A DNA stretch of 27,542 nucleotides from a virus, in the UHGV virus genome UHGV-0088497; one strand, given 5' to 3'. The notes under the pieces are model-generated. The model saw nothing but the letters and a program-made list of their open reading frames with translations, ran no database searches and was not told the origin of the DNA. Of the stretch, positions 4,345 to 14,440 are shown piece after piece. The first letter of the stretch is position 1; every line of letters begins with the position of its first letter. The translations under genes were made by a program, and so were the position numbers.

Positions 4345-5209
4345 GAGCACTAAATTAACCGGCTACGTATGGGATGGTTGCGCGGCGTCGGGCATGAAGT
4401 TGTCTAGTGTCGCGATCATGGCTCGACTCGCTGATTTCAGCAGTGATGAGGGCGTATGCTGGCCGTCAATTGAAACTATTGCTCGCCAGCTTGGCGCAGG
4501 CCCGAGCACTATCAGAACGGCAATCGCAAAGCTTGAAAAAGATGGCTGGCTCACGCGTACACAGCGCCGTAATGGTAACCGTAATGCTTCGAACGTGTAC
4601 CGCCTGAATGTGGCGAAACTTCAGGCTGCCGCATTTTCTCAACTGTCAGATTCTGACACATCAAAATCTGACGCATCAAAATTTGACACCTCAAAAACTG
4701 ACCCGTCGAAATCCGGCAAAAACGGCGGTTTTGACCCGTCAGAATCTGGCGGGGATCCGTCAGTAAAATCAAAACAAGATCCACAAGTAACTTTAAAACC
4801 CTCTTGTCCGGTTGCGGCGCAACCCGACCCTGAGGTTGTGATTACTGATCAGGCCAGACAGGTTTTGTCTTACCTGAACCAGACAACTGGTTCACGCTAC
4901 CAGGTATGCAGCACGTCGCTGGAGAACATTCGCGCCCGTCTGCGGGAACAGTTCACTGTTGATGATCTGTGCCTTGTGGTGGATTACAAAAACGCTGATT
5001 GGCGTGATAGCGAGCAGGCTCAATACCTCCGCCCGGCAACTCTGTTTATTCCAAAAAACTTCCCCGGTTACCTGCAAAGCGCGACCAAATGGTCTGCCGC
5101 TGGGCGACCTGAACGCGTTAACGGTAAATGGGCGACTAACTCAGCCAGCCGCGCAAACTTCCAAAATGTTGACTATTCACTGCCAGAAAATTCGGGGTTC
5201 CGCTCTTGA
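4343..5209 (+). CDS. replication initiation protein (N-terminal wHTH, conserved phage C-terminal domain; functional analogue of lambda O)
   Basis: 288-aa ORF after the cII-like gene; N-terminal HTH (PSIETIARQLGAGPSTIRTAIAKLEKDGWL); internal iteron repeats within the linker coding sequence, as in lambda O. Confidence 0.75.
   Translation: MSTKLTGYVWDGCAASGMKLSSVAIMARLADFSSDEGVCWPSIETIARQLGAGPSTIRTAIAKLEKDGWLTRTQRRNGNRNASNVYRLNVAKLQAAAFSQLSDSDTSKSDASKFDTSKTDPSKSGKNGGFDPSESGGDPSVKSKQDPQVTLKPSCPVAAQPDPEVVITDQARQVLSYLNQTTGSRYQVCSTSLENIRARLREQFTVDDLCLVVDYKNADWRDSEQAQYLRPATLFIPKNFPGYLQSATKWSAAGRPERVNGKWATNSASRANFQNVDYSLPENSGFRS
4643..4775 (+). repeat. iteron array (ori-like): about six degenerate copies of CTGACNCATCAAAAT at ~15-bp period, followed by an AT-rich stretch
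   Basis: Read directly: ctgacacatcaaaat / ctgacgcatcaaaat / ttgacacctcaaaaa / ctgacccgtcgaaat / ttgacccgtcagaat / ccgtcagtaaaatcaaaa; encodes the repetitive SDSDTSKSDASKFDTSKTDPSKS peptide. Confidence 0.6.
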
Positions 5210-6525
5210 TGCCAAATAAATATTGCCAGGCGCTGGCAGAACTGCGCAGTAAACCAGCTCACGAATTGAAAGAAGTTGGAGATCAGTGGAGGACACCTGA
5301 TCTGCTTTTCTGGGGGATCAACGCGTTATTTGGCCCATTAGTTCTGGACTTGTTTGCTGACGACGACAACGCGAAATGCCCGGCATGGTACACCGCCGAA
5401 GATAACGCGCTGACCCAGGACTGGTCTGAACGTCTGGCAAAACTGGGTGGTGCAGGTTATGGCAACCCACCGTATAGCCGTTCGCAGTACCACGAGAAAC
5501 AGGCGATCACTGGTATGACGCACATCATGAAGTACGCAGCAGCCCAGCGCGAGAAGGGCGGTCGCTATGTATTCCTGATAAAAGCCGCGCCAAGTGAAAC
5601 GTGGTGGCCGGAAGATGCCGATCACATTGTATTCATTCGCGGGCGCATTGGGTTCGATCTGCCTGTGTGGTTTGTACCTGCTGACGAAAAACAGAAGCCC
5701 ACCAGCGCGTTTTTTGCCGGTGCCATAGCTGTATTCGATAAGTCATGGCGTGGTGAGCGGTTCAGCTATATCAACCGTACCGAACTGGAGGCAAAAGGGC
5801 GGGCGTTTATGACTTTGGCGCAATTTGCTGCCAGCAAGTCTCAACCTGCAACTGCCACACCATCTGTAGCTGACAAGCCAGAAGCAGAGTTGCCACTTAC
5901 CCAGAAAGATATTTTTGATATCAGCGGTGTCGAGGCGTGGGCATGCGTTAGAGCTGCGTTCGGCGATAAAGAAGAATACACATTTAGTGAATCGAAGTTT
6001 GGGCATACCTGGGCGGCGGATTCTGTCGAAGCACCGGAATTCACTCAGGTATCACCATTAACGATCGACAAAGCGAAGCTGCTTATTCGTGAGAGTATTT
6101 TGTTCGGTGTGGATGAGTGGCTGTTGTCGATTGAATTCGATGACGCTGCTGCGCGCCTGGATATGTCGGAACGTATTCGTACTGTTGCCCTTGAAGCATC
6201 TGGTGAATATGGCATGAACAGTACTGATTTCATTGCAGCTATGGGAAGCCTGGATGTTTCCAGTTGGTCCAATATTCGCCAGATCCGCATGCACATCCGT
6301 GAGAAAACTAAACCAGTATCGGATCCGCTTCCCGAGTCCCGTATCTGGCCGCTGGAGGTTGGAATTGTATTCGACCAGGTAGACGGCGCTGACATGCTGG
6401 ATGAATCACAGCAGAACAAGCTGAAAGCCAACATCAATCAACTCTGGCTGGAACGAACGGCCACCAGCGAAATCATTACTGCTGCTTCTGAACTTGTTCG
6501 CAATATGCGGGGAGAGGCCGCGTGA
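5209..6525 (+). CDS. phage Dam-family N6-adenine DNA methyltransferase (NPPY motif) with a ~250-aa C-terminal extension of unknown function
   Basis: GNPPY catalytic motif in the N-terminal ~190 aa; ATG at 5209 overlaps the upstream TGA; the C-terminal region has no motif I recognise. Confidence 0.7.
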   Translation: MPNKYCQALAELRSKPAHELKEVGDQWRTPDLLFWGINALFGPLVLDLFADDDNAKCPAWYTAEDNALTQDWSERLAKLGGAGYGNPPYSRSQYHEKQAITGMTHIMKYAAAQREKGGRYVFLIKAAPSETWWPEDADHIVFIRGRIGFDLPVWFVPADEKQKPTSAFFAGAIAVFDKSWRGERFSYINRTELEAKGRAFMTLAQFAASKSQPATATPSVADKPEAELPLTQKDIFDISGVEAWACVRAAFGDKEEYTFSESKFGHTWAADSVEAPEFTQVSPLTIDKAKLLIRESILFGVDEWLLSIEFDDAAARLDMSERIRTVALEASGEYGMNSTDFIAAMGSLDVSSWSNIRQIRMHIREKTKPVSDPLPESRIWPLEVGIVFDQVDGADMLDESQQNKLKANINQLWLERTATSEIITAASELVRNMRGEAA

Positions 6526-7608: not shown

Positions 7609-8600
7609 GGGCTTTGTTAACTCCTGAAGTCGCCCATCGCATGGGGATTGTGTTGTTTCGTCCCGGCGCGGAACTGATGCACCTCTTTATGCGTGGTCGC
7701 GTTTTGCTCGAGCCTGAACCAGAAGAAATGGCGTCATTCAGTACAGGAGCTGTTCCCGCCGCCATTCAGCCGCTGGCTGATGATCCGGTAATGCGGCAGG
7801 TCTTCGAGAATGATCGGGTTATTCAGCGTGCCGGTGGGCTTCCTTCCCTTGAGCAATGGTTGAGTACCCGGTTTGAATGCCAGTGGCCACATTCATCGTG
7901 GCACGATAAGAACTTCACAATAATGCGGCACCCACCAGGAAGTATTCACCTGTGCTGGCATTGCGATCACACTTTGTCGGGGCAACATACCGAACAGCTT
8001 GCAGGTATAGCGGCAGGAAACCTGGTATCCTGGATTCTGGAAGTCATTCGGCGTGATTCTGGTTTTCCCGAGTCGCATATCCTGACGCTTCCGGAACTGT
8101 GCTGGTGGATGGTCAGAAACGACCTGGCTGATGTTATTCCGGAAAGCGTTGCGCACAAGGGGCTACGCCTTCCGGATGAGAAGATCCGCTCGGTCATGAG
8201 GGAAAGCGATATTGTACCTTCCGTTTCTGCAACCAGCCTCGTGCAGGAGAAGGCGAAGAAGATCATCACGCTCTCTGTTGATCCGGAGTCTCCGGAATCT
8301 TTCATGCTCAGGCCAAAGCGACGCCGCTGGATAAATGAGACTTACACCCGCTGGGTAAAAACACAACCCTGTGAGTGTTGCCGACGGCCAGCAGATGATC
8401 CGCACCATATCGTAGGGCACGGTATGGGTGGTACAGCAACAAAAGCCCATGACCTCTTCGTGATCCCTCTGTGCAGAGAGTGCCACGACGAGTTACACGC
8501 CGATGTACCGGCATTCGAGCAGAAGCATGGTACGCAGCTTGAGCTGCTACTGCGTTTTATGGATCGGGCGCTGGCGATCGGTGTAATTGCGAAAGCTTAA
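7605..8600 (+). CDS. DUF968-like phage protein with C-terminal Cys/His-rich HNH-like zinc-binding motif (putative nuclease)
   Basis: 331-aa ORF; C-terminus CECCRRPADDPHHIVGHG...CRECHDELH; GTG start overlapping the upstream stop. Family names from memory. Confidence 0.55.
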   Translation: MRALLTPEVAHRMGIVLFRPGAELMHLFMRGRVLLEPEPEEMASFSTGAVPAAIQPLADDPVMRQVFENDRVIQRAGGLPSLEQWLSTRFECQWPHSSWHDKNFTIMRHPPGSIHLCWHCDHTLSGQHTEQLAGIAAGNLVSWILEVIRRDSGFPESHILTLPELCWWMVRNDLADVIPESVAHKGLRLPDEKIRSVMRESDIVPSVSATSLVQEKAKKIITLSVDPESPESFMLRPKRRRWINETYTRWVKTQPCECCRRPADDPHHIVGHGMGGTATKAHDLFVIPLCRECHDELHADVPAFEQKHGTQLELLLRFMDRALAIGVIAKA

Positions 8601-8617
8601 GTGTATGGAGAAAAGTG

Positions 8618-8983
8618 ATGCGTGATATTCAAATGTTACTTGAAAGATGGGGCGGGTGGGCTGCCAGTGATAGTTCTGGCGTGGACTATTCTCCTATAGC
8701 TGCAGGATTTAAGGGGCTGTTGCCGCAAACAGGTAGATCCCGACCGTCATGTACTGACGATGATGCGCTGATCATCGAAGGTTGCCTGGCGCGATTGAAA
8801 AGCCGGAAACCATATGAGCATTCACTGCTTGTAGCTCACTATCTGTATGGAATATCCAAGAGGAAGATCGCAAAAGTGCGTAAAAAAGATGAGAAATTGA
8901 TACGGATCGAGATACAGATGGCTGAGGGGTTTATTGATGGCTGCCTTTCAATGTTGGATGTAAGGCTTGATATGGATGAATAA
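8618..8983 (+). CDS. late-gene antitermination protein Q (Phage_antitermQ family)
   Basis: N-terminal RDIQMLLERWGGWAA and central AAGFKGLL...DDDALIIEGCLARLK...LLVAHYLYGISKRKIAK resemble Q-like antiterminators of Salmonella/E. coli lambdoid prophages; GGAG upstream. Confidence 0.7.
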   Translation: MRDIQMLLERWGGWAASDSSGVDYSPIAAGFKGLLPQTGRSRPSCTDDDALIIEGCLARLKSRKPYEHSLLVAHYLYGISKRKIAKVRKKDEKLIRIEIQMAEGFIDGCLSMLDVRLDMDE

Positions 8984-8989
8984 CTAATT

Positions 8990-9023
8990 GTTAACATTAT
9001 GCCCCGTGTAGGGGCCTAATGTT
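8990..9023. terminator. long imperfect hairpin (AACATTATGCCCC-GTGTA-GGGGCCTAATGTT) between convergent Q and the minus-strand cassette; tR'-like or bidirectional terminator candidate
   Basis: Inverted repeat read directly; no strong T-run, so function is uncertain. Confidence 0.35.
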
Positions 9024-9471
9024 ACAAGTGAGGGAAAATTCTACGCAGCACTAACCAACACCTACCAAATGTGCAAAGTGAAAGGAGCAGCGAAGACAAT
9101 CCTAACAGGAGAAATAAAAAATCAATTGGTTGAGCAAAGACCTTAACATCCTCTGGTAAGAACATAGCGATCAGTGGAAACAAGCAGGCCAAAATCAGCG
9201 TCAACCCTGTTGATAGCAAGCGATTTATCAATGTTGGTAATATATTATTCCTTTTGAGGGCGTTAATGGCCCCATCTTTGTCACTATCTGCGCTACTGAA
9301 TATAGATATAGCGGCGAGAACAAACCCAAAAAGAATTCCTGAAATTGTCGAAAGCACACCTGCTGTAGTTAACACATCAGCATGTTTCATAGGCTTAAAC
9401 AGTTTTGTCGCTGCATAAGTAATCAGAACTAAGAGGACCACTTTCCAAAAAAGAGTTAGAAATTCTCTCAT
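9022..9471 (-). CDS. small 4-TM inner-membrane protein (149 aa), second gene of two-gene accessory cassette (RexB-like architecture)
   Basis: Four hydrophobic helices; strong SD (AAGGGAGGA) upstream of ATG 9471, 18 nt after the stop of the upstream gene; AT-rich sequence. Confidence 0.65.
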   Translation of the reverse strand: MREFLTLFWKVVLLVLITYAATKLFKPMKHADVLTTAGVLSTISGILFGFVLAAISIFSSADSDKDGAINALKRNNILPTLINRLLSTGLTLILACLFPLIAMFLPEDVKVFAQPIDFLFLLLGLSSLLLSLCTFGRCWLVLRRIFPHL

Positions 9472-9489
9472 TTTGTCCTCCCTTTTGCG

Positions 9490-10437
9490 TTACTGGTTTT
9501 TTTTTGCAAGCTCATACTGTGCAAGGTAATTTGCATTATCAATTTTAGCAGATATCATCGCCGTCCTGATATCAGAATCAGAAGGATAGCCGCTTTTTAC
9601 TACTATAGTTTTCGAGCCTATGAGCACTTGATCAAGTAGGCTTTTTGGCGCTGTATCTGATGGTTCTGTTACATCAATTTTCTTGATGTTTAGCCCGCCA
9701 GAGCCTTTGGGGAATAGTTCAAGCAGTTCTTTAATAGCATCAGTAACTGATGATTTAAGATAGTTGAAGCCTGCTCTTTTGGGACGAATGCGACCGCGCA
9801 TGTTAAGTCTCAGGTGTGAACCGCCCATACCAACCACCATATCAATGATGTCATTAGTAAGGTCATTCTTAATCTGATAATTAGCTTTATTGAAATTTCT
9901 TGGCGCTGCGACAGTGAGGTCAAAACTGCGAAGGATGTTCCCATCTTCAAGAAGTTCCTTCATGCTCTCGTGCTTCCAGATAGCCTCGAATGTAACATTT
10001 TTCATTTGTGTCTTGTTGTACAGAATGAAAGATAAATCATTCACTTTGGGGCCTAAATGGTTGAGAGTCATTGCTAGTAAATCTGTTTCAAAGTAGTAAA
10101 TAAAATATGTCCGTTCTACTACTGAATCTTTATCGCTAAGCGGTATCGTTCGCTCGCTTCCTGTGGTGCCATCCTCGATAAAAGGTAAGAGACAATCACG
10201 CCTCCACGAGACATACCCAAAATAACTCTGCTGCTTATCATCCTTTTCAAGAATGACAAGTTTTAAACCGCGGTTTTGGGTTTCTGCTGTCACCACTAAA
10301 GGGAATGTAACCGGAGTCGTGTTTGTCATTTGCTCGAATGCAAGTTTCGCTGTAGACAGACCGTCTTTTTTACTTCCATTTCCAGTGAAAAAGCCAACTC
10401 TTACGCGACGAGTTTTCTTCTTATCTTCTGTAGTCAT
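9490..10437 (-). CDS. soluble 315-aa protein of unknown function, first gene of two-gene accessory cassette (RexA-like position)
   Basis: Long AT-rich ORF with no catalytic motif I recognise. ORF-track start at 10443 is TTG; ATG at 10437 is more likely. Confidence 0.65.
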   Translation of the reverse strand: MTTEDKKKTRRVRVGFFTGNGSKKDGLSTAKLAFEQMTNTTPVTFPLVVTAETQNRGLKLVILEKDDKQQSYFGYVSWRRDCLLPFIEDGTTGSERTIPLSDKDSVVERTYFIYYFETDLLAMTLNHLGPKVNDLSFILYNKTQMKNVTFEAIWKHESMKELLEDGNILRSFDLTVAAPRNFNKANYQIKNDLTNDIIDMVVGMGGSHLRLNMRGRIRPKRAGFNYLKSSVTDAIKELLELFPKGSGGLNIKKIDVTEPSDTAPKSLLDQVLIGSKTIVVKSGYPSDSDIRTAMISAKIDNANYLAQYELAKKNQ

Positions 10438-10675
10438 TATCAATCCGATGAGAATTTCTGATAAACGGACGAAAAATACTATAAATAATTGAGAAGATCA
10501 TTAGCGCGGTCCGCAAAAAGTGATGTAACGTGTTAAGAGTGGTTACTTGGTCACATTGCTTAATCATCAAATTCAGCTTCTGAGTTTTGTTTTAACGATG
10601 CTTGATTGTGCGACTTATCTCTCTGAAACTTATCTTCTTTTCCTTGACTATGAATTTTCTATCTAAGGAGGTTCT

Positions 10676-10924
10676 ATGTTGGGAGTGTGTTCTTGTGGTG
10701 GTAGGCTTGATGAGTCGCAGTATTCCACCGATAGCCTAGGTAATACGTTCAAATCTTGTCCAAGATGTACGCAGATTTCCGGGCATCACGTTTTCTATCT
10801 TATTGAGGAGTTTGGCGAGAGGGATATGGGGGATGGCAGAGTTATAGTGCAACCATATTGCCCATCGTGCAGAAACTACCAAGAAAGATCATTAGTTCCT
10901 GCGTTTGAGTGCAGTGGTTCATGA
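10676..10924 (+). CDS. Cys-rich zinc-ribbon protein (CSCGG...CPRC...CPSC), 82 aa
   Basis: ORF with strong SD (AAGGAGG, 10663-10669) and a canonical intrinsic terminator immediately downstream. Confidence 0.6.
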   Translation: MLGVCSCGGRLDESQYSTDSLGNTFKSCPRCTQISGHHVFYLIEEFGERDMGDGRVIVQPYCPSCRNYQERSLVPAFECSGS

Positions 10925-10942
10925 TCACAACATTCAATATAA

Positions 10943-10966
10943 GACCACCTTCGGGTGGTTTTTTTA
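10943..10966 (+). terminator. Rho-independent terminator (ACCACC-TTCG-GGTGGT followed by T6)
   Basis: Perfect 6-bp GC-rich stem with tetraloop at 10944-10959 and a T-run at 10960-10965. Confidence 0.8.
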
Positions 10967-11088
10967 TGACAAATCAGACATGCGCGGCGCGTAAAGGCGC
11001 TGGTGGTCGCAGAATGGAATTCTTCTCTTGCTGGTGAAGCCAACCAGAGTTATCTGTATGTCACTCTAATTGTTTAAGGGTAAAAGGC

Positions 11089-11280
11089 ATGCTAAATCAG
11101 CAAGATATGACAGAAACCGCGAAGGCTGTTTTCAATGAGTTAAGCGATAAACCAGCATCGGTTGGGGAGATTGCACAGAATACCCACCTCAGCCGCGAAC
11201 GTTGCCAACTCATACTTACGCAATTGGTGATGGCGGGATTATCTGACTACCAGTTCGGATGTTATAAGCGTTTCCAGTGA
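11089..11280 (+). CDS. small hypothetical protein (63 aa), possibly DNA-binding
   Basis: ORF in track with AAAAGG upstream; short helix-rich sequence; no firm motif. Confidence 0.4.
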   Translation: MLNQQDMTETAKAVFNELSDKPASVGEIAQNTHLSRERCQLILTQLVMAGLSDYQFGCYKRFQ

Positions 11281-11410
11281 TATGTTTTTTTGCACTATGT
11301 GAACTGCATCAACAGTTTAGTTTTTTCTTATTTCTGGCTTAAAAATAGTTTTTGACATAACTCTTTAGCTATTAAGATTTTTTACCTTATCAACTTGATA
11401 GAGGTGAAAA

Positions 11411-11743
11411 ATGAGTGTTGAAAATTATGAAATTGCTTTAAATGATGTTGACCCAACTAACCTGGGTGCGGTTAAAGACTTATTGGAGACACACTCCCAT
11501 CTTTTCAATGACTATTTTCTAGCCGGTTATGGCGGTGATGCCCGATACTCCGTTATTGATGGCTCATTTGAAGTTATCGGTATTGGAGATGGTTTTTTTG
11601 AGTATGAGGTTGGGATTGATTTTTTTGCTGGTTGCTCAGATATGAACGATACCCACGAAGACTCTGGGATACTTGAATATGAAGTTAGAGATGGAAGTAT
11701 TCACATTGAAGTGGATGAAGCTGTCTGGAGAGTAGACAATTAA
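11411..11743 (+). CDS. strongly acidic small protein (110 aa)
   Basis: SD GAGGTG upstream of ATG 11411; many D/E and few K/R (large net negative charge); immediately upstream of a DNA methyltransferase gene. Confidence 0.55.
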   Translation: MSVENYEIALNDVDPTNLGAVKDLLETHSHLFNDYFLAGYGGDARYSVIDGSFEVIGIGDGFFEYEVGIDFFAGCSDMNDTHEDSGILEYEVRDGSIHIEVDEAVWRVDN

Positions 11744-11933
11744 TTCCCGCTTACTGATCCTAATCGCGCCGCTATAAATGGTTTGGCGGCTTTCTGCTGT
11801 GGAAATGGGCGGCTGGTGGGTGTTAGCGCACCCAGTCAGCCATCAGCTCATGCTTTCAGGTCACAAGCTAACCAAGGCCCACTGCTTTAGCGCAAAAGCA
11901 ACGTGAGCCTATCAGAGTTACGCTTACTGATCT

Positions 11934-12986
11934 ATGAAAAATACTGTAAAAATAAACAGGGTTGAGTTAATCAACGCTGATAGCCTGCATTACGTCGCCA
12001 CCCTCCCGGATAACTCTATTGATCTGATTGTTACGGATCCTCCGTACTTCAAAGTGAAGCCTAACGGCTGGGACAACCAATGGAAGGGGGACGAGGACTA
12101 CTTACGCTGGCTTGATAGCTGCCTGGCTGAGTATGCTCGCGTTCTTAAACCTGCTGGCAGCATCTACCTGTTTTGCGGTCACCGACTGGCCTCAGACATA
12201 GAGATTATGATGCGTACCCGGTTCAAAGTTTTGAATCACATCATTTGGGCAAAACCATCGGGCCGCTGGAATGGATGTAACAAAGAAAGCCTGCGTGCGT
12301 ACTTTCCATCTACGGAACGGATTTTGTTTGCTGAGCACTATCTTGGGCCGTACACAGGTAAAGAGGATGTTTACGAAAGGAAAAGCACAGAGCTAAAGCA
12401 GCACATTATGACGCCGCTGATTGATTACTTCCGTAATGCCCGTGAATCACTGGGAGTCAGCTCGAAAGAAATAGCTGAGGCAACCGGAAAGAAAAACATG
12501 GCGTCACACTGGTTTGGTGCAAGCCAATGGCAACTACCAAATGAAGTGGACTATAGAAAATTGCAGGAACTGTTCACGCGGATCGCTATCGATAAGCACA
12601 TTCAGCAGAAGCTTGAACATCCTCACCACCAGCTGGTAGCCACCTATCAGTCATTAAACCGCAAGTATTCAGAATTGCTGGAGGAATACAAAACCCTCCG
12701 GCGCTGCTTCTCTGTTTCCGCTTTTGTTCCGTATACCGACGTATGGACGCATAAGCCTGTTCAGTTTTATCCAGGCAAACATCCATGCGAAAAACCTGCC
12801 GACATGCTGAAGCAGATCATTAGCGCCAGCAGCAGACCGGGGGATATCGTTGCCGATTTCTTTATGGGCTCTGGTTCAACTGTGAAAGCTGCAATAGAAC
12901 TTGGTCGTCGGGCGATCGGCGTAGAACTGGAAACCGACAGGTTTATTCAGACCACCGAAGAGGTGGAAAAACTCAACAAAACATAA
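11934..12986 (+). CDS. beta-class DNA methyltransferase (motif IV DPPY before motif I FxGxG), N6-adenine or N4-cytosine specific, no adjacent restriction gene seen
   Basis: VTDPPYF near the N-terminus and DFFMGSGST near the C-terminus give the beta-class motif order. Confidence 0.8.
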   Translation: MKNTVKINRVELINADSLHYVATLPDNSIDLIVTDPPYFKVKPNGWDNQWKGDEDYLRWLDSCLAEYARVLKPAGSIYLFCGHRLASDIEIMMRTRFKVLNHIIWAKPSGRWNGCNKESLRAYFPSTERILFAEHYLGPYTGKEDVYERKSTELKQHIMTPLIDYFRNARESLGVSSKEIAEATGKKNMASHWFGASQWQLPNEVDYRKLQELFTRIAIDKHIQQKLEHPHHQLVATYQSLNRKYSELLEEYKTLRRCFSVSAFVPYTDVWTHKPVQFYPGKHPCEKPADMLKQIISASSRPGDIVADFFMGSGSTVKAAIELGRRAIGVELETDRFIQTTEEVEKLNKT

Positions 12987-13129
12987 CGATCATCACGCTC
13001 CCTGTTGCTGTGGTGATCACCATTTTCAGGCACCGGGAATCATCCTTACTTTTAGTTGAACAAAAGAGCCCGGTTGCCTGATCCCCTCCAATCACACACA
13101 GCGCCATCCGAAAAATCGGAGGTGAGGCT

Positions 13130-13408
13130 ATGACCAGAATGAGCACCATTTACAGCAGACTTTCATATGGATCAGGAACCACGCTTGCCGGCTGCGGTGT
13201 ATCAGCGAAGGCATATGCCGAAACAGCCAAAACAGCAAAAGAGGTGTCCTGGATGTTGGCCGACAGAATTGCAGGGTTAAGCCTGAGCGACTGGGCAATT
13301 ATTGTCGGTATCGCATGCACAGTTATCACCTGTGCAGTGAACTGGTATTTCCGCTGGAAAGAACGGGAGGATCGGCGCAATGGCTATGCCACCAAAGCTG
13401 AAGAATAA
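13130..13408 (+). CDS. class II holin (pinholin, phage-21 S21-like) with dual-start motif (M-T-R-M)
   Basis: C-terminal TM2 and basic tail (WAIIVGIACTVITCAVNWYFRWKEREDRR) resemble S21; Gly/Ala-rich weakly hydrophobic TM1; GGAGG 7 nt upstream of ATG 13130 and a second ATG at 13139. Confidence 0.75.
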   Translation: MTRMSTIYSRLSYGSGTTLAGCGVSAKAYAETAKTAKEVSWMLADRIAGLSLSDWAIIVGIACTVITCAVNWYFRWKEREDRRNGYATKAEE

Positions 13409-13928
13409 ACTGAGCGCAGCGGTCGTTGGTTTGATTCTTGCGGGGGCTTCCGCGCCCGTGATTCTCGATCAGTTTCTGGATGAGAAAGAGGGTAACAGCC
13501 TGACAGCATATCGCGACGGCGGCGGAATCTGGACTATTTGCCGTGGCGCCACGATGGTTGATGGTAAGCCAGTCGTTCAGGGGATGAAACTGACGCAAGC
13601 TAAGTGTGAACAGGTCAATGCCATTGAGCGTAACAAGGCGCTGGCGTGGGTTGAGCGAAATATCAGGGTACCGCTGAGCGAACCACAGAAAGCCGGGATC
13701 GCATCTTTCTGCCCATATAACATAGGCCCCGGAAAATGTTTCCCGTCCACGTTCTATAAGCGAATGAACGCCGGCGACACAAAAGGCGCGTGTGAAGCTA
13801 TTCGCTGGTGGATTAAAGACGGTGGCCGCGATTGTCGCCTGACCAAAGGCCAGAAAAATGGCTGTTATGGGCAGGTAGAACGACGAGATCAGGAAAGCGC
13901 GCTGACGTGCTGGGGGATAGACCAGTGA
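13386..13928 (+). CDS. SAR endolysin (GH24/T4-type lysozyme with N-terminal signal-anchor-release domain, R21-like)
   Basis: N-terminus [27 protein letters not shown] (SAR-like); catalytic region [22 protein letters not shown] (E...D...T spacing of T4-lysozyme type); follows a pinholin. Confidence 0.8.
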
Positions 13929-14440
13929 GCCTGCGCTATCAGTTCATTGCTATTTCGGTGCTGGTGGCCGTCGCATTTATCGCCGGAAACGAGTGGAGTA
14001 ACCGCGGTTGGGAAAAAAAGTGGGCGGAACGTGACAGCGCGAAATCCTCGCAAACAGCGAACGCGCAGACCGCCGCCCGCATGATTGAACAAGGGCGAAT
14101 TATTGCCCGTGATGAGGCTGTAAAAGATGCACAAGCACAAGCCGCTAAATCTGCTGCGAATGCTGCTGGCCTGTCTGCCACTGTTAGCCAGCTGCGCACC
14201 GAAGCAACAAAGTTTGCCGCCCGCCTGGACGCCGCAAAGCACACCTCAGATCTTGCCGCTGCCGTCAGAAGCAAAACAGCCGGAGCCGACGCCAGAATGC
14301 TCGCCGACATGCTCGGAAGTATTGCAGAAGAAGCTCGATATTATGCTGAGCGATCTGACGAAAGCTACCGGGCTGGAATGACATGTGAGCGTGTTTACGA
14401 CTCGGTGAGACATTCGAATAACAACAGGGTTACACGATGA
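13925..14440 (+). CDS. i-spanin Rz
   Basis: GTG at 13925 overlaps the endolysin stop; N-terminal TM helix ([15 protein letters not shown]) then Ala/Gln-rich coiled-coil-like periplasmic domain. The ORF-track start at 13832 would overlap the endolysin by ~100 nt. Confidence 0.7.
14127..14381 (+). CDS. o-spanin Rz1 lipoprotein, embedded in Rz in the +1 frame
   Basis: Lipoprotein signal with lipobox LASC ([23 protein letters not shown]) followed by a Pro-rich mature region; fully inside the Rz coding region. Alternative start at ATG 14160. Confidence 0.7.

Follow-up and report, generated by a model that had tools for sequence, protein, structure and literature searches.

A stretch of 27,542 nucleotides (nt) from the virus genome UHGV-0088497, analysed over its whole length and referred to here as the window, is a typical lambdoid prophage. 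Its gene at positions 11934 to 12986 (plus strand) encodes a DNA methyltransferase (MTase) which, judged by its sequence, belongs to the already-known M.EcoGII family and is not an uncharacterised cargo enzyme. We consider it probable that this enzyme is a non-specific MTase encoded in a late operon dependent on the antiterminator Q, that it is silent in the lysogen and that it hypermethylates progeny DNA against restriction. The gene is preceded by a conserved structured leader RNA of 139 nt (11798..11936, plus strand), which ends at the MTase AUG and is linked exclusively to MTase genes of this family. An earlier reading made from the sequence alone (the original prediction) had described the gene as an orphan beta-class MTase in a late-region cargo island.

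The assignment as a beta-class N6-adenine DNA methyltransferase of the M.EcoGII family is based on the open reading frame (ORF), on family models and on alignments. The ORF starts with ATG and specifies a product of 350 amino acids (aa). A beta-class amino-methyltransferase had been predicted at exactly these coordinates, and this was confirmed by a match to Pfam PF01555 (N6_N4_Mtase; E=3.5e-44, 151.8 bits with a cutoff of 26.7) across residues 29-335. The match spreads 307 residues over a model of 221 positions and therefore reveals a large central insert in the protein. The PADLOC MTase_II model PDLC03265 matched the protein over its full length (E=4.6e-142) and phrog_67 (PHROG 67) matched with E=5.8e-96. 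Motif IV (DPPY, residues 35-38) precedes motif I (FMGSG, residues 310-314), which is the motif order of the beta class. Upon alignment to M.EcoGII, residues 1-134 and about 260-350 correspond to the Rossmann domain and residues about 135-259 to a helical linker together with the target recognition domain (TRD). Sequence matches in the PDB were confined to two catalytic segments (residues about 10-113 and 281-341), and the same search returned no match for the central TRD. Accordingly, the Rossmann catalytic halves of RsrI, MboIIA, CcrM, DpnA and 8urk/9c3u align with the MTase with E-values of 1e-13 to 1e-26, whereas the TRD does not. An AlphaFold2 (AF2) model calculated from a shallow alignment showed a split Rossmann domain around an all-helical insert (residues 146-255), albeit at low confidence (mean pLDDT 64.5). 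The modelled layout agrees with the published architecture of M.EcoGII-type enzymes; the model is too uncertain to add weight to the assignment and was likewise judged too uncertain for a fold search.

The gene is under purifying selection and is functional in the evolutionary sense: the ratio of nonsynonymous to synonymous substitution rates (dN/dS) is 0.05-0.07 in comparison with the orthologues of Escherichia coli Nissle 1917 and of Citrobacter phage phiNP. At least 24 public contigs carry an identical protein in the same gene arrangement. Prophage 3 of E. coli Nissle 1917 has a 96.5% identical gene, the protein showing 97.7% aa identity and the leader 99% identity, and a relative with 74% identity is encoded by phiP27, a phage carrying the Shiga toxin (Stx) variant Stx2e. 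The M.EcoGII family was detected in 2,720 of 5,426 complete E. coli genomes by a lower-stringency search, with up to 8 copies per genome, and is also widespread in prophages of Enterobacterales. Some RefSeq copies of the MTase bear the name 'site-specific DNA-methyltransferase', which is generic and automatic.

For closer comparison we used M.EcoGII and six resurrected ancestors, the sequences of which were machine-read from the PDF of Supplementary Table S1 of PMC11551740, so that small errors are to be expected. In BLASTP, 261 of 348 positions were identical between the MTase and M.EcoGII (75%, with 84% positives and 2 gaps). The two proteins are colinear, have almost the same length (350 versus 349 aa) and are homologous over their full length, the MTase having no additional domains. 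The homology search on the TRD that had been suggested along with the original prediction hence led to an M.EcoGII-like TRD within this 75% identical, full-length homologue. The closest ancestor is Anc289, with 84% identity overall and 82% across the TRD (residues 160-237). The TRD aligns without gaps both to Anc289 and to M.EcoGII, with 67% identity to the latter, and the linkers are similar in net charge. In a neighbour-joining (NJ) tree, the MTase branches beside Anc289, inside the Anc284/SUPREM-derived group that contains M.EcoGII. The MTase thus shares with M.EcoGII and M.EcoGI the beta-class motif order, the central helical TRD, the charged linker, the location in a lambdoid prophage and the lack of a restriction partner. 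It differs from M.EcoGII at one quarter of all residues and at one third of those in the TRD, and has Glu instead of Gln at residue 179. It also resembles Anc289, Anc291 and Anc284 (SUPREM), and is nearest to the first of these; they are inferred sequences and not natural proteins.

M.EcoGII is a non-specific adenine DNA/RNA methyltransferase from E. coli O104:H4 C227-11 (Murray et al. 2018, PMC5778455). All six resurrected ancestors are active and methylate DNA and RNA, and M.EcoGII, Anc291 and SUPREM (Anc284) were reported to be largely non-sequence-specific, the specificity of the ancestors having been profiled mainly on RNA (PMC11551740). Because of the homology to M.EcoGII and the phylogenetic bracketing by non-specific enzymes, the expected activity of the MTase is adenine methylation in practically every context, without a discrete motif. 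The closest relative with confirmed site specificity is M.PflMI (CCANNNNNTGG), which shares only about 27% of its residues with M.EcoGII and is devoid of the charged linker between the domains (PMC11551740). M.PflMI shares the beta-class fold and is predicted to have a similar TRD; it is part of a restriction-modification (R-M) system, and the MTase is far closer to M.EcoGII than to M.PflMI.

The genes of the window are arranged in the order S24 repressor, CII, replication protein, Dam-type MTase, RusA, Ant, DUF968, Q, cargo, MTase, holin, lysozyme, DUF2514 and terminase. The Q-family antiterminator gene (8615..8983, plus strand, 122 aa) was identified by phrog_79 (E=8.6e-46) and by a match to PF06530 (Phage_antitermQ) on an identical contig, and its product presumably drives read-through into the MTase and lysis genes. 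Directly 3' of the MTase gene follows the lysis cassette (13130..14440, plus strand), consisting of holin (13130-13408), lysozyme (13380-13928) and a spanin-like DUF2514 protein (13832-14440). The context was compared in Nissle, Citrobacter phage phiNP, PhiR40_1, Stx2a and Stx2e phages, an O157 prophage, a Yersinia phage and an Aeromonas phage. The MTase gene was always located 3' of Q and either directly 5' of the holin/lysis genes, as in the window, or 5' of transfer RNA (tRNA) and stx genes, which intervene before the lysis genes in Stx phages. The order of MTase and lysis genes is the same in Nissle, phiNP, PhiR40_1 and the Yersinia and Aeromonas phages, and the content between Q and MTase varies from phage to phage. 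Given this constant position, the variable cargo and a higher GC content (0.48 compared with 0.39-0.41 in the upstream cargo), the MTase gene is a conserved late-operon gene and is situated outside the low-GC cargo. The placement in a cargo island could therefore not be upheld; instead, the gene is accompanied by the lysis cassette and by a leader of its own.

The gene is an orphan. Pfam, NCBIfam and PADLOC models, applied to all sizeable ORFs of the window, detected no restriction endonuclease or defence domain, which agrees with the predicted absence of a restriction partner. The further claim that the prophage carries a second MTase also proved correct. This early-region enzyme is a Dam-type phage MTase of 439 aa (5206..6525, plus strand) with matches to PF05869 (Dam, E=2e-43) and TIGR01712 (phage_N6A_met, E=1.3e-61). 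Its PF05869 domain comprises residues 18-198, and its C-terminal extension of about 225 aa is not assigned to any Pfam family. The combination of a Dam-type and an M.EcoGII-type MTase is common in related phages, including Nissle, phiNP and Yersinia P840, and two orphan MTases are therefore ordinary for such phages.

In an upstream alignment of 85 loci, conservation was higher over the roughly 150 nt that precede the MTase start codon than in the gene on either side. A profile of this leader was found in exactly one copy per locus, abutting the start codon, even in a Yersinia phage with a 58% identical MTase. The leader is 79-85% identical where third codon positions are down to 39-50%. We also scanned one genome per species with three invariant anchors and obtained 50 matches. 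In all 36 leader-like matches, an MTase of the M.EcoGII family (55-93% identical) starts at the 3' end of the leader on the same strand, whereas no MTase adjoins the 14 chance anchor matches in unrelated phyla. The closest relatives of M.EcoGII that were compared (93-95% identity) carry the same leader.

In the window, a long-range helix (11806-11810/11877-11881) closes the hairpins P1 (11811-11822/11829-11841) and P2 (11843-11848/11866-11871), and the 3' part of the leader contains P3 (11883-11888/11895-11900) and P4 (11903-11908/11922-11927). A first alignment with MAFFT and RNAalifold misaligned the covarying hairpins of divergent leaders and gave a poor consensus. Instead, a covariance model was built from a clean seed and a hand-drawn structure (the UGGGC/GCCCA long-range helix, P1, P2, P3 and P4) and used to align all leaders; the leader of the window scored 168 bits. 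Among 87 distinct leaders, 91.7% of the cells were paired, compared with 28-42% when the partners were slid. Both sides had changed in 29 of the 35 pairs, in all five helices, and 289 cells were compensatory as against 18-56 with slid partners. The observed values were not attained in any of 500 shuffles. The alignment underlying these values was fitted to the model and favours structure, yet wholly different P1 sequences across genera are seen in the raw sequences. The analysis thus shows the existence of the leader, its structure and its exclusive linkage to the MTase. In addition, a candidate pseudoknot between GGUCA in the P2 loop and UGAUC before the AUG is formable in more than 93% of the sequences; its bases are near-invariant and show no double changes.

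The MTase gene of the window starts without a recognizable Shine-Dalgarno (SD) sequence. The calculated free energy of the duplex with the anti-SD sequence is +1.3 kcal/mol compared with -5 to -12.6 kcal/mol for neighbouring genes, and an SD core is present in only one of the 87 leaders. MTase homologues devoid of the leader carry AGGAG or AAGGAGG. We give about even chances to the possibility that the leader represents an uncatalogued class of multi-helix cis-regulatory RNA which replaces the SD sequence and gates translation of the toxic M.EcoGII-family MTase. The trigger might be a late factor, a small protein (a winged helix-turn-helix (wHTH) protein in enterics, Com in the Aeromonas type) or S-adenosylmethionine/S-adenosylhomocysteine (SAM/SAH). 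A comparison of positions 11200-12100 with Rfam 15 by cmscan (E<=10) returned only a spurious opposite-strand microRNA match of 16 bits (cutoff 85). A comparative paper on the Stx pR' region mentions neither a methyltransferase nor such a leader element, and none of Weinberg's 224 motifs is tied to an MTase-leader context. A description of the leader was found neither in Rfam nor in searchable papers, which cannot prove that it is undescribed.

A GATC sequence (Dam site) is present at 11929-11932, 2 nt before the MTase start and within the conserved CUGAUCUAUG; it is kept in most leaders, and the same prophage encodes a Dam-type MTase. Mu mom is regulated by Dam. In Stx2a and Stx2e phages and in an O157 prophage, a unit of terminator, leader and MTase is located between Q and tRNA-stx (loci L004, 3864-5059; L005, 3858-5053; L086, 4858-6053). 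Late Shiga toxin transcripts must therefore cross the leader and the MTase gene in these phages.

From the order of the operon, i.e. Q, variable cargo, terminators, leader, MTase and lysis genes, the following course of events can be proposed. In the lysogen, transcription from the late promoter would stop at the terminators upstream of the MTase gene, and any read-through mRNA would be poorly translated because the start codon lacks an SD sequence and lies behind the folded leader. The leader probably keeps the toxic MTase in check in this way. Upon induction, RNA polymerase modified by Q would read through and the MTase would be made together with the lysis and packaging functions. Its helical TRD would bind nucleic acid without reading the sequence, such that the enzyme would hypermethylate replicating phage DNA at most adenines. 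Progeny phages could thereby be protected in the next host against many restriction systems sensitive to N6-methyladenine (m6A). This scheme fits the properties of M.EcoGII, which is silent in the lysogenic state and is toxic upon expression (PMC5778455; PMC12707154), and a review groups M.EcoGII with Mu Mom as silent in lysogens, toxic, made on induction and protective (PMC12707154). The original prediction had offered protection from restriction or epigenetic regulation as possible roles. The former can be retained in the form of a broad protection of the progeny by one enzyme during lytic growth; the latter is unlikely in the lysogen in view of at least two terminator-like hairpins and the missing SD sequence.

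Several points weigh against this reading. The specificity of MTases can shift with few substitutions, and the TRD is only 67% identical to that of M.EcoGII. The tree is a simple NJ tree, based on M.EcoGII and ancestor sequences that have small errors from their derivation by optical character recognition (OCR), and confidence in the AF2 model of the MTase is low. The late promoter pR' was not located in the window, either by promoter scan or by eye. Furthermore, the hairpin directly 5' of the leader (11768-11797) is weak, with 5 bp, a loop of 13 nt and an interrupted U-tract, and went undetected in the terminator scan, and an inserted ORF further upstream (11411-11743) could bring its own promoter. 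In the literature that we found, protection of phage DNA by the M.EcoGII family has been proposed but not demonstrated, and a literature search for a Nissle methylome or for activity of the prophage MTase yielded nothing usable and turned up no expression data on either this prophage or Nissle.

The MTase could alternatively be a sequence-specific orphan enzyme with a discrete motif that acts epigenetically in the lysogen or regulates the phage cycle, as is the case for Dam, CcrM and P1 Dmt. Orphan phage MTases with regulatory roles do exist (review PMC12707154), the TRD deviates from that of M.EcoGII at one third of its positions, and some copies are labelled as site-specific in RefSeq, even if by an automatic name. 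We nevertheless regard this possibility as unlikely since the MTase falls inside a clade bracketed by non-specific enzymes, from which M.PflMI is set apart by its low identity to M.EcoGII and its missing charged linker, and since the gene is positioned behind terminators without an SD sequence and other members of the family are silent in lysogens. It is far less probable still that the MTase is the modification half of an R-M or defence system with a partner among the minus-strand genes at 9022-10443 or the ORFs starting at 10676, 11089 and 11411. Several of these neighbours initially had no family assignment and the best PADLOC model is labelled 'MTase_II', but the nearly identical MTase of Nissle has different upstream cargo, and a comparison of more than 120 loci showed no neighbours that recur apart from the wHTH ORF, the leader and the lysis or stx genes. 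In addition, no nuclease domain was detected in the neighbours, among which a 317-aa protein is modelled with a RexA-like fold and a 149-aa protein with four transmembrane (TM) segments. An R-M partnership is therefore largely refuted. Finally, the main substrate in vivo could be RNA, or RNA together with DNA, in which case the enzyme would serve a late takeover or anti-defence function and DNA protection would be secondary. M.EcoGII methylates RNA and DNA:RNA hybrids (PMC5778455), and the exchange E179Q lowers RNA methylation by SUPREM 3.4-fold (PMC11551740). Glu179 is shared by the natural MTase studied here and SUPREM, the engineered variant with high RNA activity, and the natural enzyme may accordingly be a better RNA methyltransferase than M.EcoGII with its Gln179. 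A single residue is weak evidence, however, and the natural enzyme was measured to be about 100-fold less active on RNA than on DNA (Table S3, PMC11551740), which leaves RNA as main substrate with a very small probability.

With respect to the leader, the question arises whether the conserved block acts in cis on the MTase gene at all or rather contains a small ORF, a site acting at the DNA level or an independent small RNA (sRNA) gene. An AUG is invariant in the AAUGGGCG anchor, a 42-aa ORF (11778-11906, plus strand) listed by the ORF finder overlaps the leader, and prophage late regions do encode sRNAs. A coding function, also as an upstream ORF, was rejected: the frame opened by the invariant AUG runs for 4-44 codons before a stop, the resulting peptides are not conserved, and stops occur in all three frames in about 87% of the sequences. 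The frame of the 42-aa ORF is broken at variable positions in related leaders, and this ORF is almost certainly not a gene. Neither did the leader correspond to a known prophage sRNA, as the anti-sRNAs AgvB, AsxR and EcOnc as well as StxS and the Pas sRNAs differ in position and size, the anti-sRNAs and Pas sRNAs being located elsewhere and shorter. Base pairing, by contrast, is conserved with compensatory changes in every helix, and the 3' end of the leader lacks a terminator and invariably meets a same-strand start codon. These findings render an element other than a cis-acting regulator of the MTase improbable.

Parallels exist between the arrangement described here and the com-mom operon of phage Mu. 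Mu Com is a small zinc-finger protein; by binding to a hairpin in the leader, it switches on the translation of mom, the gene for a toxic DNA-modifying enzyme. As in com-mom, a toxic, late DNA-modifying enzyme would be silent in the lysogen, an ORF with the size of a small regulator lies upstream, and a structured RNA precedes an SD-poor start. In contrast to com-mom, the small upstream ORF of the window encodes a winged-helix protein, and Mom is not a methyltransferase; to our knowledge, the 139-nt multi-helix leader has no counterpart in Mu. No match to Com (PF10122) was found among the small ORFs of the window, and the resemblance is therefore one of functional analogy and not of membership. 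A different situation is encountered in Aeromonas phage PCAh2. Here, the covariance model identified a divergent leader 133 nt upstream of the MTase gene, the long-range helix of which reads GUGGC/GCCAC and differs by two compensatory pairs. The interval between leader and MTase encodes a match to Zn_ribbon_Com (PF10122, 'Mu-like prophage protein Com'; E=1.4e-8), which overlaps the MTase start. The Aeromonas-type loci with this com-MTase layout are L088 (1435-1623), L139-L141 and L183 (2871-3089), representing two independent Com lineages, and in L183 the leader ends exactly at the com start codon. In Com-type loci the leader thus precedes com and not the MTase gene, whereas it abuts the MTase start in enterobacterial loci.

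Directly 5' of the leader, a GC hairpin formed by GCCGC (11768-11772) and GCGGC (11786-11790) and followed by UUUCUG was read from the sequence (11768..11797, plus strand). Homologous hairpins are present in all related loci, where they have strong stems and U-runs and vary in sequence with the pairing kept; RNAalifold detected compensatory changes in the stem. The hairpin is the weak version, in the window, of an intrinsic terminator that precedes the leader in related loci. A canonical intrinsic terminator (10944..10965, plus strand; ACCACC-UUCG-GGUGGU followed by U6), also read from the sequence, lies 3' of an 82-aa ORF and 5' of the wHTH ORF. A simple promoter and terminator scan, which gave no more sites than expected by chance, missed both plus-strand hairpins and listed the latter terminator only in its minus-strand reading.

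The small wHTH ORF (11089..11280, plus strand) encodes 63 aa and was assigned as DprA_WH/TrmB-like and to phrog_331. It is present in 73 of 85 viral loci, with its stop codon 151-162 nt before the MTase ATG, and was found by profile search in 70 of 105 loci. An obligatory partnership with the leader was rejected on the grounds of this distribution: since no distant lineage contains the ORF, the partnership is frequent without being obligatory. In the window, an extra ORF (11411..11743, plus strand; 110 aa, GC 0.39, phrog_13663, no Pfam match) is located downstream of the wHTH ORF and upstream of the hairpin and leader. It occurs only in the window, in locus L009 and in the identical public contigs, and is absent from most related loci. 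As it separates the wHTH ORF from the hairpin and the leader, the latter two stay with the MTase gene. The 82-aa ORF (10676-10924, plus strand) encodes a Cys-rich protein (CxC...CPRC...CPSC) that belongs to phrog_7682, has a weak match to YnfU and is not a Com homologue. It possesses a very strong SD sequence (AAGGAGG) and is directly followed by the canonical terminator. In the minus-strand cargo (9022-10443), the RexA-like fold of the 317-aa protein emerged from a fold search with its model, a PDB sequence search with this protein having returned nothing; together with the 149-aa protein modelled with four TM segments, this cargo looks RexAB-like and not like a nuclease. ARAGORN detected neither tRNA nor transfer-messenger RNA (tmRNA) genes in the window. 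The DUF6731 protein of the window is 100% identical to an annotated protein of Citrobacter freundii (L190, GCA_016087095.2). The arrangement from 8600 to 13400 was not found as a whole in any complete E. coli genome; the best match in this species covered 41% of it. Rather than E. coli, the host is likely to be Citrobacter or a near relative of it.

The MTase itself adds little, as it is one more natural variant of a characterised family, members of which already serve as tools in chromatin footprinting, MadID and RNA methylation. For annotation, it is of relevance that thousands of such genes are labelled 'site-specific DNA-methyltransferase' and that a discrete motif would probably not emerge from a methylome search. 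The part that merits interest is the leader RNA, which is supported by covariation, absent from Rfam and exclusive to M.EcoGII-family loci across Enterobacterales and Aeromonas phages. The leader could account for the tolerance of lysogens towards the gene for a lethal enzyme and for the silence of M.EcoGII in its native context. Since it is positioned between the late promoter and the toxin genes in Stx phages, it could also bear on toxin expression. The variants containing Com tie the M.EcoGII family to the classic translational control of a toxic DNA-modifying enzyme by Mu com-mom. If the leader indeed represents a new class of cis-regulatory RNA, roughly every second E. coli genome would contain it; it would precede the gene of the widely used enzyme M.EcoGII and, in many Shiga-toxin phages, lie on the path of transcripts from Q to stx.

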